Shown here: in pieces, positions 1,120 through 54,292 of the stretch
Layout: every line of letters starts with the position of its first letter
Numbering within the stretch: the first letter of the stretch is position 1
Source: an uncultured Rhodospirillaceae bacterium
GTDB taxonomy: Bacteria; Pseudomonadota; Alphaproteobacteria; MPNO01; UBA2964
Length of the DNA stretch: 64,000 nucleotides
Direction: 5' to 3'
Assembly: GCA_964499275.1 (NCBI GenBank)
Contig: CAZCKO010000001.1
Coordinates: 14,739 to 78,738, forward strand
The notes under the pieces: generated by a model
Database searches by the model: none
What the model was told of the DNA's origin: nothing
Seen by the model: the letters and a program-made list of their open reading frames with translations, nothing else
Made by a program: the position numbers and the translations under genes

Positions 1120-1202
1120 TCAAAATTTTTTAACTGAGTTTTTGGCGTTAAGTAATGCCCAACCATTAATTATGGTTTTGTTTTGAAGTTTCGAATGTAT
1201 AA

Positions 1203-1400
1203 TCTCCAACTGATGGTTCCCCATCGGGATTAAAAGGGAACGCGGTGAGTCTTTGGCCTATAAAAAATTAGTCCTCACAATGCCGTGGCTGCCCTCGCAA
1301 CTGTAAGTGGGAAATTGATGTCCATATATGTCACTGCTTAAGCGGGAAGGCGGATGTCAGTATAGATCCACGAGCCAGGAAACCTGCCGTCGCAATTGTC
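1203..1400 (+). promoter_or_regulatory. Cobalamin (B12) riboswitch in the btuB leader
   Basis: Conserved cobalamin-riboswitch core blocks are present: GGTTCC...GGGATTAAAAGGGAACGCGGTGAGTC...GCCGTGGCTGCCCTCGCAACTGTAAGTGGG...GTCACTG...GCGGGAAGGC. The B12-box-like GAGCCAGGAAACCTGCCG sits around 1371–1390. It lies upstream of a TonB-dependent receptor. Confidence 0.85.
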
Positions 1401-1596
1401 ACCTATCCGTTGGGCGAGGAGACCAAGGGGGGCGGGCTCTCCGTTTTTGGTGACACAGGTATTTACCTTGTGGAAAGAACCAAAATGGATCTAATAGCTG
1501 ATCAATCCCTTCGTTCAAAACATCGTCCTTCAGCGCGTTGTATAATCCGCGAGTGCAGATACCTGTCTTTACCATTCGTCAAAGACGGAATCAGGA

Positions 1597-3700: not shown

Positions 3701-4582
3701 ATGATTGGACAAATACTTCCATTAAAACAACTTAGATTTAGTAGGTTTGAAAGGTGGGTATACCCCCTGTCAATTTCATTAATCGCGCATGTTGCTTTAA
3801 TCGTCTTAATTTTTTTGAACGATGCGGATATTTCTGAACCAATTTTACCGAAAACATTTAAAGTCGAGATAGTCACAGAGCAAAAGAGCTGGCAACAGGA
3901 ACCCATTCCAGAAAACTCCAAAAATTCAATCGAATCAACTTCAGCTATCAATTTAATTTCCGACGAAGCTCGGCCCAAGGAAATACTAAAACGAAAGAAA
4001 AATTTACACCCTTCGAAACACCCTCCTCAGAAAGCAGAAAATCCTATTTACGCACCGCTTCCCAAGCGTAAGCCTGTACTTGCATCAATGAGGTTAAGCT
4101 ATCAAAACATCAAAAATCCGCGGTTACAGCAACCATATACCGAAGACAAGTTATTTATTAATTTAGATACTCCAGTTAAGCAGAAAACTTACTCAGAGAC
4201 AGATAAGTCAACCAAAGTCCCCTTTTTATCAACACCACCAAATCTCAAAGGTGGGGGGGCCAAAACCCCAGTCATACGAACTAAACCTCCAAGACCCGAC
4301 TCTGAGGCAAACAATCCATACCCGCAGTACCCCAATCGCGCTCGAAGACGAGGACTAGAGGGAGGGCTCATCCTTAGAGTAACGGTAAATATTAAAGGAG
4401 CACCGTCTGCTATTGAAGTCATAAAAACGAGTGGTCACGAAATTCTCGACAGGGCTGCTGTCAAAGCAGTGCGTAATTGGCAATTTCAACCCGCCAAAAA
4501 GGGAGAAAAGCCGGTGAAAGCTAGCGTTAATCTGCCCGTAGAATTTCGTCTCCGAGAAAAACCAGATGACAATAGTGAGTAA
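3701..4582 (+). CDS. tonB: Energy transducer TonB
   Basis: N-terminal TM anchor, Pro/Lys-rich central linker and a C-terminal TonB domain (PYPQYPNRARRRGLEGGLILRVTVNIKGAPSAIEVIKTSGHEILDRAAVKAVRNWQFQPA). It starts 14 nt after the btuB stop. Confidence 0.85.
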   Translation: MIGQILPLKQLRFSRFERWVYPLSISLIAHVALIVLIFLNDADISEPILPKTFKVEIVTEQKSWQQEPIPENSKNSIESTSAINLISDEARPKEILKRKKNLHPSKHPPQKAENPIYAPLPKRKPVLASMRLSYQNIKNPRLQQPYTEDKLFINLDTPVKQKTYSETDKSTKVPFLSTPPNLKGGGAKTPVIRTKPPRPDSEANNPYPQYPNRARRRGLEGGLILRVTVNIKGAPSAIEVIKTSGHEILDRAAVKAVRNWQFQPAKKGEKPVKASVNLPVEFRLREKPDDNSE

Positions 4583-4948: not shown

Positions 4949-5025
4949 TGGTGCGCCCGGCAGGATTCGAACCTGCGACCCCAGGATTAGGAATCCTGTG
5001 CTCTATCCTACTGAGCTACGGGCGC
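4949..5025 (-). tRNA. tRNA-Arg (anticodon CCT)
   Basis: Minus-strand 77-nt cloverleaf GCGCCCGTAGCTCAGTAGGATAGAGCACAGGATTCCTAATCCTGGGGTCGCAGGTTCGAATCCTGCCGGGCGCACCA. Anticodon loop TTCCTAA. T-arm GGTTCGAATCC. Encoded CCA. Confidence 0.85.
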
Positions 5026-16093: not shown

Positions 16094-16126
16094 AACCAGC
16101 GAGAATAATTCCTCGCTGGTTTTTAT
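16093..16126. terminator. Bidirectional intrinsic terminator between the MBL hydrolase and the convergent liv operon
   Basis: AAACCAGCGAG-aataattc-CTCGCTGGTTT, an 11-bp perfect stem flanked by A/T-tracts on both sides. Confidence 0.75.
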
Positions 16127-20697: not shown

Positions 20698-21040
20698 TTG
20701 TATTCTTTTTTTCTTCCAAGCGACCAAAATACTCGAGTATATCAAAAAGAAACAAGTAAGCCTTGTCGTCAAAATTCTGGAATGGCGAATATCCAGAAGA
20801 TCGGCAGTAATTTCCACTAATGATGGAAATCATCCTTTTATTCACTCCATTTCTTTATTATTGCTCTCTCACTAAGCACCCAGGCAGTGCCTTGTGTGAC
20901 AGCTCCCTCCGCTGGTCTCAACCAGTTCAGGTTCGATGGGTTTTGTCTCAGTCCTCTCGGACACCCCAGGTCATCGTGTAGAAGTTAGTCTCTCCATGGC
21001 GACTGTCAAGTCTTTGACTTATATTTTCGATTAATTTTCA
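20698..21040 (-). other. Long (about 340 nt) structured 5' leader of the liv operon
   Basis: No credible ORF. Several GC-rich hairpins read on the minus strand (GTCCgagaGGAC; CTGGTtgagACCAG; GGAGGGAGCTGTC...). Confidence 0.35.
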
Positions 21041-23616: not shown

Positions 23617-26301
23617 CTATGCGGCCTCTTTTGCGATATTTCGAAGAACATATTGAAGGATTCCACCGTGCCGATAATATTCGACCTCATCCAGCGTATC
23701 GATCCTACACCTGGTAATAATTTCATCACTTTGCCCATCAGCTCTGGTAATCTTCACAGGTATATCCATACCTGGCGTGATACCACCTGAGATGCCGGTA
23801 ATATCAAAAATTTCGGTCCCATTTAAGTTTAGGGTATCCCGGTTTTGGTCATTGGTGAACTCCAAAGGCATAACACCCATACCAATGAGATTAGACCGGT
23901 GAATCCTTTCAAAGCTCTCTACAATTGCTGCACGAATGCCTAGCAAATTTGGGCCCTTAGCCGCCCAATCCCGCGATGATCCCATACCATAATCCTTCCC
24001 CGCCACAACAACCAGTGGGATACCGTCCTTTTGGTATAGCATCGAAGCTTCATAAACCGACATTTCCTTCCCATCCGGTAAATGCCGTGTGAAGCCGCCT
24101 TCAGTTCCCGGCACCATCTCATTACGGATACGAATATTTGCGAAGGTCCCGCGGGTCATCACCTCAAAATTTCCACGGCGGGCGCCATAGGAATTAAATT
24201 CATCTGGCCTAATTTGTCGTTCTAGAAGAAAGTCGCCTGCAGGGCTGGCTTTAGGAAACCCGCCGGCCGGTGAAATATGATCAGTTGTCACAGAGTCCCC
24301 CATTTTGAGCAAGACACGTGCATTATTGATATCATTCAAAGGAGCAGGCTCTGGTCCCATTCCCTCAAAGAAGGGGGGATACTGAACATAGGTTGATCCT
24401 GAATTCCACGCATAAGTCTCCCCTTGAGGAATGCCCATGCTATTCCAAGCTTCAGAGCCATTACCGACGTTATCATAGCGATCTCGAAACATCTGCGGCG
24501 TAATACTCGAGCGGATAGTGTCTTGGATTTCATCATTGCTGGGCCAGATATCTTTAAGATAGACCGGTTTGCCCTCTAAATCTTCCCCTAAAGAATCAGT
24601 CGACAAATTGATTTTTAAAGAGCCAGCTAGGGCATAGGCCACCACTAACGGTGGGGAGGCCAAATAATTGGCTTTAACTTGCTGATGAACGCGCCCCTCA
24701 AAATTTCGATTTCCAGAAAGAACAGCACCTGCAACCAAATTTCCTTCGTCAATTGCATCTGCTACAGGGCCTATCAACGGCCCAGAATTACCAATACAGG
24801 TCGTACAACCGTAACCCACAACATTAAATCCTAACGTATCAAGGTCGTCTTGAAGTCCTGCAGCACTAAGGTAATCCGAAACCACCTGACTGCCAGGCGC
24901 TAGTGAGGTCTTCACCCAGGGCTTTACTTTCATCCCCTTACTAACAGCATTTCGCGCAACCAACCCTGCCGCTATTAAAACCGATGGGTTCGAAGTATTG
25001 GTGCAACTGGTAATCGCTGCTATAGCGACAGCGCCATCATCCAAGGTGTAATTTTCCCGTTCGACAGCAACTTTTCCTTTACTAACATCCCAGCTTGGTA
25101 ATTCATTGGCAAAATTATCTGGCATCTCGGAAAGACTGACGCGGTCTTGCGGCCGGCGTGGCCCTGCAAGACTGGGCTCAACCGTCGAAATATCGAGCTC
25201 GAGTGTATCTGTGAAAATTGGATCAGCTGACGTCGCGTCGCGCCACATGCCCTGCTCCTTGGCATAACCTTCTACCAATGCCACTTGATCTTCCTCACGT
25301 CCCGTCGACTTTAGAAAGTTAATTGTCTCAGAGTCGATTGGGAAAAATCCGCAAGTCGCCCCGTATTCTGGCGCCATATTTCCGATAGTCGCCCGGTCCG
25401 GAAGACTCAGATTATCAACGCCAGGACCAAAAAATTCGACAAACTTGGAAACTACTCCCTTAGCCCGCAGCATTTGAGTAACTGTAAGTACTAAATCGGT
25501 TGCTGTCGTACCCTCAGTGAGCGCCCCAGTCAGTTTAAATCCTATGACTTGTGGTAATAACATTGAAATAGGCTGACCTAACATTGCCGCTTCCGCCTCG
25601 ATTCCACCGCAACCCCAGCCTAAAACTGCAAGACCATTGACCATCGTCGTGTGGCTATCTGTTCCAACCAAAGTGTCAGGATATGCGATAACCTTTCCAT
25701 TTTCTTCGGTAGTCCAAACAGCCCTTGCCAAGTACTCGAGGTTTACCTGATGGCATATTCCCATTCCAGGCGGGACAACTCGGAAGTTTGAAAACGCTTT
25801 TTGTCCCCACCGCAGAAATTCATAACGTTCCTGATTGCGTGAAAATTCCAATTCGACATTTTGCTCAAAAGCATCCGGTGTTCCAAAATTATCAATCATC
25901 ACCGAATGATCAATGACCAAGTCGACAGGGCAAAGAGGATTAATTTTTTGAACATCTCCACCTATTTTAACCATGGCCTCGCGCATAGCGGCAAGGTCAA
26001 CGATGGCGGGCACTCCTGTGAGGTCTTGGAGTAAAACCCTGGCAGGGCGAAAGGCAATCTCATTAGCCGCGCTCGAAGTACCATCCCATGATGCAGCAGC
26101 TTTAATATTTTCGCCGGTGACAGATCGACCGTCTTCATACCGCAAAAGATTTTCTAACAAAACTTTCATTGAATAAGGTAAACGCGAAATATTTCCAACG
26201 CCCTTTGCCTCAGCGACTTTAAGGCTAAAATAATCGTAATTATTACCGCCTATAGTAAGCGTGCTGCGCACACCTAAGCTGTCTTTTCCGGTAACCCCCA
26301 C
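23617..26301 (-). CDS. acnA: Aconitate hydratase A
   Basis: 894 aa, full-length aconitase/IRP family with 4Fe-4S Cys ligands in CTNTSN and [13 protein letters not shown] start with AGGGAGAG RBS. Confidence 0.92.
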
Positions 26302-26562
26302 GGCGCTCTCCCTATGTTATTGGGTTTTATGGATCTATATTATGAATTTGGCGCATAAATAACGTGCAAACGCTATAACTCTCAAGAGAAACGTTCTGTG
26401 AATTTCCCTTAAATCATATTAACTACAAGTATTATCATAAAATTGCCTTAATTCCGACCTTGGTTTAACAAAATATTTTTTAGAATAGCATTACCTAACC
26501 TCTGATAGGACACATTCTCCATGGCGTCCAACTAGTCATAAATACCGACTGGTAACACTTAA

Positions 26563-26594
26563 GGTCGTCGGGTAGAATCCGGCGACCTTTTGTT
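26563..26594 (+). terminator. Intrinsic-terminator-like hairpin with a T-tract about 30–55 nt upstream of the ccmA start
   Basis: GGTCGTCGG-gtagaat-CCGGCGACC (9-bp stem with one G·U), then TTTTGTT. Terminator-like only on the plus strand. Confidence 0.55.
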
Positions 26595-26650
26595 ATCCTG
26601 AAAACAACGTTATATCCAAACCTGGGTTGCTGCGCCTTTCATCAGGAAAA

Positions 26651-27325
26651 ATGAATAAACTTACGCTAAGTTATATAACAATGCGATTTTTTGGGGAAAA
26701 TATATCTTGCATACGTGGACAACGGCTAGTTTTTTCTAATCTAGATTTTAGCGTTGAACCGGGGAATGCATTAATTATTACTGGCAATAATGGGTCTGGC
26801 AAAACGAGCCTTCTCCGCCTTATGGCAGGCCTGTCGAGGCCAGCTTCTGGCCATATCAATTGGCAAGGTGGAGCCATTTGGGACGATCCAGAAACACATC
26901 GCGTCCGTCTCCACTTTATTGGACATCTAAATGCTCTTAAATCAACCCTTTCGGTAAAAGAAAACTTAGAAACCTGGTCACATCTTCACGGCGGTAGAAA
27001 GAAAGATATTGTTGAGACGATCAAAAAATTAAAACTAGAGGGTCTGGAAGATACCCATTGTCAGAATTTATCAGCAGGCCAGAAGCAACGGGCATCGTTA
27101 GCGCGTTTAGCTACCAATGATGCCCCACTGTGGTTACTAGACGAGCCAACAACCGCACTTGATGCAATGTCAGTCGACCTCCTCAACTCAATGATTAAAA
27201 CACATATTAAAGGGGGTGGTACCTGTGTAATCGCAACCAATACTGCTCTAAATATGGAGAACTGCCTCGAACTAAATATGCAAAACTTCGCTGCTGAGCC
27301 AAAACACCGCAGGGAATTTTTATGA
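26651..27325 (+). CDS. ccmA: Heme exporter ATP-binding protein CcmA
   Basis: Walker A GNNGSGKTS, LSAGQKQR signature, LLDEPTTALD Walker B. Start set at the ATG at 26651 (AGGA RBS). The ORF track begins at a TTG at 26627. Confidence 0.85.
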   Translation: MNKLTLSYITMRFFGENISCIRGQRLVFSNLDFSVEPGNALIITGNNGSGKTSLLRLMAGLSRPASGHINWQGGAIWDDPETHRVRLHFIGHLNALKSTLSVKENLETWSHLHGGRKKDIVETIKKLKLEGLEDTHCQNLSAGQKQRASLARLATNDAPLWLLDEPTTALDAMSVDLLNSMIKTHIKGGGTCVIATNTALNMENCLELNMQNFAAEPKHRREFL

Positions 27326-27990: not shown

Positions 27991-28157
27991 ATCGGTTGTT
28001 AATACAATTTCTGAATTAATGTTCTGGAAACACAAATTATGATAATTGACAACGTATCTCGATATAATTTTTATGATTGGCAATCGAATTTTAGGTCTAT
28101 TTTTTATAGAAACTCCCATGATTGATGAGCGTAACAAATTAAACCGGTTTATAGAGA

Positions 28158-28895
28158 ATGATGATAACGCATTACGCCAACCCTGCCCGTTTTAATCGTC
28201 TTTCAGCAGGATTAATCCCCTGGCTCGCATGGCCTGCCGGATTGCTGATTTTATTAGGTCTTTATTTTGGCCTGTTCAATTCACCGCCGGATTATCAACA
28301 AGGTGAGACCGTCCGAATAATGTACGTGCATGTACCATCGGCTTGGATGGCACTGTTTATTTATACAACAATCGCCATTGCGTGTGCCACAGGACTTATT
28401 TGGAGACACCCGCTAGCATTTATTGCTGCCAGGGCCGCCGCGCCTATTGGCGCATGTTTTACATTCATATGTTTGCTGACTGGCTCTCTATGGGGAAAAA
28501 CAATGTGGGGTGCGTGGTGGGTTTGGGATGCTAGACTGACATCAGTCTTAATTCTTTTCTTTCTCTACATTGGATTTATTGCTCTGCATCAAGCCTTTGA
28601 CGATCCTGCAAGAGGTGAACGCTCCGCAGCAATCTTAGCAATTATCGGCTTTATCAATATCCCAATCATCAAATTTTCAGTAGATTGGTGGAATACTCTT
28701 CATCAACCCGCCAGCATAATCAAAATAGCAGGCCCATCTATCCACTCAACAATGCTTTATCCACTGTTCACGATGGGCCTTGGATTCATACTTTATTTCA
28801 CCGTATTACTACTATTTAGGATGAGAACTTTAATGCTAGAGCGTCGCTTGCGAATCATGAGAATGAATGAACTTCATCAGAACGGCACGGATTAG
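28158..28895 (+). CDS. ccmC: Heme exporter protein CcmC
   Basis: WGAWWVWDARLTS tryptophan-rich WWD motif. Conserved His residues present. Confidence 0.9.
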   Translation: MMITHYANPARFNRLSAGLIPWLAWPAGLLILLGLYFGLFNSPPDYQQGETVRIMYVHVPSAWMALFIYTTIAIACATGLIWRHPLAFIAARAAAPIGACFTFICLLTGSLWGKTMWGAWWVWDARLTSVLILFFLYIGFIALHQAFDDPARGERSAAILAIIGFINIPIIKFSVDWWNTLHQPASIIKIAGPSIHSTMLYPLFTMGLGFILYFTVLLLFRMRTLMLERRLRIMRMNELHQNGTD

Positions 28896-54216: not shown

Positions 54217-54292
54217 TGGTGGAGGTAAGCGGAATTGAACCGCTGACCTTCTGATTGCGAACCAGACGCTCTCCCAACTGAGCTATACCCCC
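54217..54292 (-). tRNA. tRNA-Ala (anticodon CGC)
   Basis: 76-nt minus-strand cloverleaf GGGGGTATAGCTCAGTTGGGAGAGCGTCTGGTTCGCAATCAGAAGGTCAGCGGTTCAATTCCGCTTACCTCCACCA. G3:U70 Ala identity pair. Anticodon loop TTCGCAA. Encoded CCA. Confidence 0.85.

Follow-up and report, generated by a model that had tools for sequence, protein, structure and literature searches.

The spacer between acnA and ccmA was analysed in a 64,000-nt stretch of contig CAZCKO010000001.1 from an uncultured Rhodospirillaceae bacterium (the whole stretch is hereafter called the window), where an element of about 100 nt, closed by a terminator hairpin, is a real and conserved RNA gene that is probably functional. On one side of the spacer lies acnA (23617–26301, minus strand; NCBIfam AcnA, 1419.8 bits), which is divergent from the ccm genes; the initial annotation had rightly stated that no plus-strand gene lies upstream of the hairpin. 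On the other side, an NCBIfam search placed ccmA, ccmB, ccmC, ccmD, ccmE and ccmF all on the plus strand, with ccmA (26681–27325; TIGR01189, 221 bits) as the first gene of ccmABCDEF. The start of ccmA is most likely the ATG at 26681, rather than 26627 or 26651, because translation from 26681 gives a protein 100% identical to the 214-aa database entry P0001, and because the ATG at 26651 is not conserved: it is replaced by AGG in relatives with 88–90% CcmA identity, in which ATG CGA TTT TTT GGG at 26681 is kept. With this start, 87 nt separate the end of the U-tract of the terminator from ccmA, in place of the 30–55 nt first proposed.

The hairpin itself occupies 26561–26594 on the plus strand, reading AAGGTCGTCGGGT-AGA-ATCCGGCGACCTT and then TTGTT. 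A 9-bp core, GGTCGTCGG/CCGGCGACC, with a 7-nt loop had been described correctly, and the helix can be extended to 13 bp, among which are 7 G-C pairs (−19.6 kcal/mol, z = −5.35 compared to shuffles). With its GC-rich stem, short loop, 3′ U-tract (UUUUGUU) and a promoter-like element about 100 nt upstream, 26561–26594 has the appearance of a Rho-independent (intrinsic) terminator. A generic consensus scan of 25900–27100 returned this as the sole terminator-like site, where 1.4 would be expected, so the count by itself was not above chance. Under a stricter rule (stem ≥ 9 bp with ≥ 6 G-C pairs, loop of 3–8 nt, ≥ 5 T among the 8 bases that follow), two sites were found in the whole window, 16095–16120 and 26561–26594, compared to a mean of 0.15 sites in 20 block-wise dinucleotide-shuffled windows. 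The terminator is thus real, far beyond chance. The other strong site, 16095–16120, is likely a bidirectional terminator, because it is a perfect palindrome, ACCAGCGAG...CTCGCTGGT, with T-runs on both strands.

For comparison, we gathered the AcnA-anchored loci of 80 genomes, CcmA homologues with their contigs, and the matches of one pattern scan of metagenome contigs. A homologous unit was found at the same place, the acnA/ccmA spacer, in five clades with CcmA identities to the window of 51–90%: clade A (the window, L081–83 and L105; about 90%), clade C (L089–92, L099, L100 and L104; about 61%), clade D (L093–95 and L098; 60%), clade E (L096–97; 57%) and clade G (L112; 51%). These element-bearing clades are a lineage of uncultured marine Rhodospirillales-like alphaproteobacteria. 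The hairpin, whose conservation in orthologous spacers the initial annotation had made decisive, is kept in all five with compensatory changes. A covariance model, R1, was built from clades A, C, D and G; it scored the window at 89.6 bits and clade E, which was outside the training set, at 60.6 bits. In the model-fitted alignment A5, 94.5% of cells were paired and 9 of 27 pairs had changed on both sides, compared to 2.3 ± 1.1 pairs in shuffles (0 of 500 shuffles reached 9) and at most 4 pairs in slid controls. The signal came from all three helices of the unit (helix 1: 89.8% of cells paired, both-side changes in 3 of 8 pairs; helix 2: 92.6% paired, both-side changes in 4 of 9 pairs, for instance U-A, U-G and C-G; helix 3, the terminator: 100% paired, with U-A to C-G exchanges between clades).

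In the window the unit spans about 26490–26594 and folds into three hairpins. Its 5′ end, AUUACCUAACCUCUGAUA (26490–26507), was unpaired in the minimum free energy (MFE) folds of the window, L089, L093 and L112, and holds the most conserved unpaired motif, CUARCCYC, a candidate seed whose columns C6, T7, A8, C10, C11 and C13 are invariant in alignment A3. Stem-loop 1 follows (26508–26529; GGACAC/GCGUCC) with a CU-rich loop, AUUCUCCAUG, and then stem-loop 2 (26531–26553; CUAGUC/GACUGG) with the loop AUAAAUACC; both are seen in the MFE folds as well as in the covariation of helices 1 and 2. A single-stranded linker, UAACACU (26554–26560), recognised in our alignments and in those to the Rfam model suhB, leads to stem-loop 3, the terminator, with AGA/GUAGAAU as its loop in the window. 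The z-scores of the three-hairpin fold were −4.7 for the window, −5.9 for L089, −6.3 for L093 and −4.0 for L112. Most relatives have C-rich or CU-rich sequence, resembling anti-Shine-Dalgarno (anti-SD) sequences, at the 5′ end, in the loop of stem-loop 1, in the linker and in the terminator loop: the loop of stem-loop 1 carries C7–C9 in clades C and D and C5 in clades E and G, the linker reads UCUCCCCUU in clades C, D and E and UUGCCUCCCC in clade G, and clades C and D have UUCCCCCC as terminator loop. Hairpins 2 and 3 of the window copy carry AU-rich loops. Contigs that are otherwise near-identical also differ in how long the poly-C run in the loop of stem-loop 1 is (C8 in L093 and C9 in L094; C7 with or without flanking bases in L089, L090 and L104), either because the homopolymer was sequenced with errors or because the putative seed really varies in length.

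Upstream of this unit, a −35 element, CTTGGT (26459–26464), lies within the motif TTCMGNCCTTSG and stands at the same position in clades A–E, and a −10 element, TAGAAT (26481–26486), follows 16 nt after it. The alphaproteobacterial −35 consensus is CTTGAC, to which CTTGGT is similar. The initial annotation had read a sigma-70-like TTGGTT-N15-TAGAAT at 26460–26486; the sequence is there, although the promoter is weak when judged against the E. coli sigma-70 consensus and was not flagged by our scan, and CTTGGT-N16-TAGAAT is the better reading. From it, transcription is predicted to start at about 26492–26494. Clade G has CTTTAT at the aligned −35 position, and the −10 position of other clades reads CATTAA, CATCTT or CAACTA. 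Directly upstream of the −35 element, the block ATTAYCAYAAAATTGCCTTAWTTCMG (26428–26458), present as a single copy in the window, is kept in clades A–E and recognisable in clade G within otherwise variable spacer, and may be a transcription-factor site or an UP-like element of the promoter. No box for the iron and oxygen regulators Fur, Irr or FnrL was recognised in this conserved block on inspection by eye. A second block of the spacer, window positions 26350–26395 (GCGCATAAATAACG ... TCTCAAGAGAAACGTT), is kept in every clade, F and G included; read on the minus strand, it is probably the acnA promoter (CTTGAG, 26386–26381; N17; GTTATT, 26363–26358).

The element is lineage-restricted and, judging from its losses, dispensable, because clade F (L108–110; CcmA identity 55–56%) has lost it and in clade B (L084–88; 61–64%) it has degenerated while ccmA persists. 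Clade F is without the promoter block and stem-loops 1 and 2 and retains the T-run, the downstream sequence and ccmA; what is left in clade B is the −35 block and scattered sequence, with no stable fold (z about 0). R1 matched neither of these two clades even with filters off. Likewise, neither R1 nor blastn gave a match in the 80 other alphaproteobacterial AcnA-anchored loci, which include about a dozen with the same acnA/ccmA synteny (Caulobacter, Phenylobacterium, Parvularculaceae, Puniceispirillum and others). The metagenome pattern scan returned 5 true matches, all upstream of ccmA, and 5 chance matches in unrelated DNA, and the R1 search found a single copy in the 64-kb window. One close relative among the 80 AcnA-anchored genomes, L001 (an uncultured Rhodospirillaceae metagenome-assembled genome (MAG) with 80% AcnA identity), adds a sixth lineage in which only the 3′ half of the terminator is visible: its spacer holds exactly 100 N (3879–3978), followed by ...ACCCACCGGCGGTCTTTTTTC, which is homologous to that half. 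The 100 N probably are an assembly gap caused by a poly-C, hairpin-rich stretch; a deliberate mask is less likely, as the break recurs at that point in L111, an independent contig from this lineage that begins just after the terminator.

Two further spacers had features of their own. In L112, an insertion of about 280 nt (about 2222–2500) between the terminator and ccmA resembles a miniature inverted-repeat transposable element, with terminal inverted repeats GCTAGAGCCCAATCGGACCAAATGGAA / TTCCATTTGGTCCGATAGTGCTCTAG. In L009, an uncultured Rickettsiales MAG, the acnA/ccmA spacer contains a long G-rich/C-rich inverted repeat (about 3790–3900, read on the ccmA strand), the 3′ arm of which, CCCCUAGUCCCUAGCCCCUAAUCCC, resembles the conserved 5′ motif UCCUAGCCCC of our element; R1 gave no match to this repeat.

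We consider it reasonably likely, though well short of settled, that a stand-alone gene for a trans-acting small RNA (sRNA), with its own promoter, has the hairpin as its Rho-independent terminator. The initial annotation had left the choice between an sRNA and an attenuator, and the sRNA is supported because the promoter, the three covarying hairpins and the terminator are conserved together as a module of about 100 nt. Transcription would start near 26492 and stop at 26590–26594, giving a product of about 100 nt in which a single-stranded 5′ end with CUARCCYC is followed by two hairpins, then a short linker and finally the terminator hairpin with its U-tail. By analogy with alphaR8, ar14/NfeR1 and ar15/AbcR, this RNA would pair in trans with the ribosome-binding regions of mRNAs and repress their translation, and Hfq would bind the terminator and U-tail. 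Its transcription, its action in trans, its Hfq dependence and its seed regions are all inferred.

Next, the element was compared with known RNA families. It is absent from Rfam 15 at curated thresholds: at the gathering threshold the whole window yielded only a cobalamin riboswitch (1197–1405, plus strand, 110.5 bits), a thiamine pyrophosphate (TPP) riboswitch (20887–20978, minus strand, 55.3 bits, just over the gathering score of 54.3) and two tRNAs on the minus strand, tRNA-Arg(CCT) at 4949–5025 and tRNA-Ala(CGC) at 54217–54292, and E-value scans of the locus returned nothing meaningful. Neither ARAGORN nor Rfam found a tRNA- or tmRNA-like element at the locus, and a small protein was rejected since no open reading frame (ORF) on either strand is conserved across the clades. 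The closest families are alphaR8 (RF00519, suhB) and ar14 (RF02344), with gathering scores of 41 and 58.8 bits, respectively. The alphaR8 RNAs, to which MmgR of Sinorhizobium meliloti, SuhB of Sphingopyxis granuli and SisA–D of Caulobacter crescentus belong, share with the element a short hairpin, a C-rich stretch (in the relatives), a GC-rich terminator and a U-tail. Their defining features are the terminator and, following a weak hairpin, the internal single-stranded 10-mer UUUCCUCCCU, and they usually lie beside the gene for N-formylglutamate amidohydrolase (FGase) (PMC12559287); the 10-mer acts, together with Hfq, as an anti-SD seed that represses translation by pairing with Shine-Dalgarno regions (PMC12559287; bioRxiv 10.64898/2025.12.09.693200). 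The element differs in having an extra 5′ hairpin and 5′ tail (about 100 nt compared to about 77 nt), in its neighbours and in scoring below threshold everywhere.

These likenesses raise the question of descent. The element could be a highly divergent paralogue of alphaR8 that relocated to the acnA/ccmA spacer, gained a 5′ hairpin and lost the 10-mer in the window's clade, an origin that we regard as possible but doubtful, and that is compatible with a stand-alone sRNA. RF00519 aligned full-length (model 1–77) to clades C, D and G at 24.3–28.1 bits (E = 0.001 in a 661-nt search), with stem-loop 2, the C-rich linker and the terminator falling on the hairpin, the anti-SD stretch and the terminator of the model; the linker of clade G, moreover, matches the 10-mer at 8 of 10 positions, and Caulobacter is documented to carry alphaR8 paralogues at unlinked loci (PMC12559287). 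Set against this, every score stays under 41 bits, and the best that the window gave was 10.7 bits (26536–26602, E = 6.3) with the anti-SD segment deleted, while a 1.4-kb scan of the window locus gave no RF00519 match. The 10-mer is not present in the window copy, the linker region of which reads GGUAACACUUAAGG, and the flanking genes are acnA and ccmA at every locus, with no FGase neighbour. Furthermore, ar14 fits about equally well, so the likeness may be a generic one, made up of a C-rich stretch between a short hairpin and a GC-rich terminator. The ar14 RNAs (NfeR1, the 'cuckoo' RNAs) have three hairpins in about 100–120 nt, unpaired anti-SD motifs in their loops and variable stems (PMC7143759), and clades C and D resemble them in the three hairpins, the C-rich loops of hairpin 1 and the terminator, and the C-rich linker, aligning end-to-end at 22–24 bits, below the 58.8 bits needed. 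The window gave no ar14 match, and the element differs from that family in the missing CCUCCUCCC motif, in the AU-rich loops of the window copy and in being single-copy there, whereas ar14 is described for Rhizobiaceae, Brucellaceae and Phyllobacteriaceae, often in multiple copies. By analogy, the element would work like the alphaR8 and ar14 families, but it is filed as a member of neither.

The region between the terminator and ccmA bears on how the operon itself may be transcribed. In clades C–H and F, a conserved block, CTTTAYTAAGGTG ... TWAYGGTYAA, lies between the two, and clades C, D and E have TWAYGGTYAA twice, about 40 nt before ccmA and about 120 nt before ccmC (L089/L093/L096: 2459–2470 and 3858–3868, corresponding to window regions about 26649–26660 and the ccmB–ccmC spacer). 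A motif shared by the upstream regions of ccmA and ccmC suggests a separate ccm promoter or regulatory site. It fits separate ccmAB and ccmC... units, each with its own promoter or regulatory site, as transcription units of this kind were reported for Magnetospirillum (PMC9549626). The window's clade has only a loose counterpart, ATGAWTAA, and a weak, speculative ccmA promoter may be read there at 26627–26656 on the plus strand (TTGCTG-N18-ATGAAT). The ccmB–ccmC spacer (27991–28157) is 167 nt long in the window and about 150–175 nt in all clades; an ORF at 28046–28195 (plus strand) falls there, and ORFs of 44–49 aa are called at this place in L081 and L084, being either a small protein or a regulatory region.

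Several points weigh against a stand-alone sRNA gene. Its promoter and transcript are predictions, and the covariation is drawn from about five independent lineages with an alignment fitted to, or leaning toward, the model. In clade A most of the C-rich motifs have been lost; the linker reads UAACACU and the CU-rich remnants are only CCUAACCUCU at the 5′ end and UUCUCC in the loop of stem-loop 1, so it is for the window copy that the case for an anti-SD mechanism is weakest. RNAduplex, run for each sRNA with the initiation regions of acnA and ccmA from its own locus, yielded no consistent pairing signal (z from −2.25 to +1.09 compared to shuffles), and seed scans of the window gave only matches of unremarkable rank, none of them at the acnA or ccmA starts. 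Since the U-tract of the window is interrupted (UUUUGUU), some read-through at its terminator is plausible; clade A has no recognisable copy of the downstream block or of TWAYGGTYAA; and in every case the element directly precedes ccmA in the same orientation, at 75–90 nt in clades without insertion and about 320 nt in clade G owing to the insertion, which would fit a leader as well.

The last three of these points, together with the lack of an obvious Shine-Dalgarno sequence at ccmA of clade A, speak for a cis-acting leader or attenuator, or for a dual role. Here the ccm operon would be transcribed from 26459–26486, and read-through of a conditional terminator would set the expression of ccmABCDEF; the short RNA would be either a by-product or a dual-function sRNA derived from the 5′ untranslated region (UTR), like UpsM of Rhodobacter sphaeroides. 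UpsM is an abundant 5′-UTR-derived sRNA that ends at a terminator upstream of the dcw/mraZ cluster, and its read-through into the operon and its processing were shown experimentally. The element resembles it in that a short transcript would end at an intrinsic terminator upstream of, and co-oriented with, an operon; it differs in that a separate ccm promoter motif is apparent after the terminator in other clades, and the element is known here from sequence alone. We regard a leader as unlikely, though less so in the window's own clade, given that the motif after the terminator is not recognisable there. The attenuator that the initial annotation had offered as its other option is unsupported because there is no conserved antiterminator, because the element is dispensable and because the motif shared with the ccmC upstream region is located after the terminator. 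A pairing CCGAC/GUCGG that could serve as antiterminator in the window was rejected, as inspection showed it to be absent in clades C and D, and ccmA and the downstream block persist in clade F, where the promoter and two hairpins are gone. In addition, the loops and the linker vary freely (UUCUCC or C7–9; AUAAAUACC, CCCAU or GCAA), unlike those of a leader that binds a ligand or protein, and E-value scans of the window element and its relatives brought no cis-regulatory or riboswitch family of Rfam near its gathering score (the best match was 6C RNA, with 15.9 bits compared to 47).

It is very improbable that the hairpin is an insulating terminator only, which would stop stray plus-strand transcription from the divergent acnA promoter region while the upstream RNA has no function. 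The hairpin does sit between two divergent units and is the best-conserved part of the element; nevertheless, two further covarying hairpins, the invariant 5′ motif and the positionally conserved −35 element with its upstream block would be left unexplained. That it is a chance structure without biological role, as the lack of enrichment in the 1.2-kb generic scan might suggest, is effectively refuted by the strict-rule counts (two sites against 0.15 expected per 64 kb) and by the compensatory changes that conserve it in five clades.

Our search of the literature in full text brought up neither an sRNA nor an attenuator for any ccm operon or acnA/ccmA spacer, in agreement with what the initial annotation had said of ccm operons; the novelty that it had implied does not hold to the same extent, as the RNA is uncatalogued and yet of a well-known type, the alphaproteobacterial sRNA of about 100 nt with CU-rich unpaired regions and an intrinsic terminator. 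If a stand-alone sRNA is indeed expressed from this locus, it would add an uncatalogued family to a poorly studied, uncultured marine alphaproteobacterial lineage. It would also offer a view of the drift of an anti-SD sRNA, from C-rich loops in GC-rich relatives to largely AU-rich loops in the window's clade. For annotation, the gain is a ccmA start corrected to 26681 and an explanation for what was otherwise an orphan terminator.

The position of the element beside acnA and ccm is suggestive in view of what other sRNAs regulate. RsaE/RoxS and FsrA of Firmicutes and RyhB of enterobacteria are base-pairing sRNAs that target ribosome-binding sites, with C-rich unpaired regions in RsaE/RoxS and FsrA, and aconitase is in their regulons, along with further functions that depend on iron or haem; the element has no sequence relation to any of them, and the parallel is one of analogy only. 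Along this line, a riboregulator of dual function might couple the two flanking iron-dependent units: read-through would set ccmABCDEF in the window's clade, and the RNA of about 100 nt would use its CU-rich 5′ end and the loop of stem-loop 1 to regulate aconitase or other iron or haem genes in trans. We hold such a coupling to be a long shot. Were it true, it would be the first case in which a cytochrome c maturation operon is described as controlled at the RNA level, and it would amount to an iron-sparing regulator like RyhB or FsrA in marine alphaproteobacteria. More generally, its fixed position between aconitase and the operon for haem export and cytochrome c maturation makes the element a candidate for RNA control of iron- or haem-dependent metabolism.

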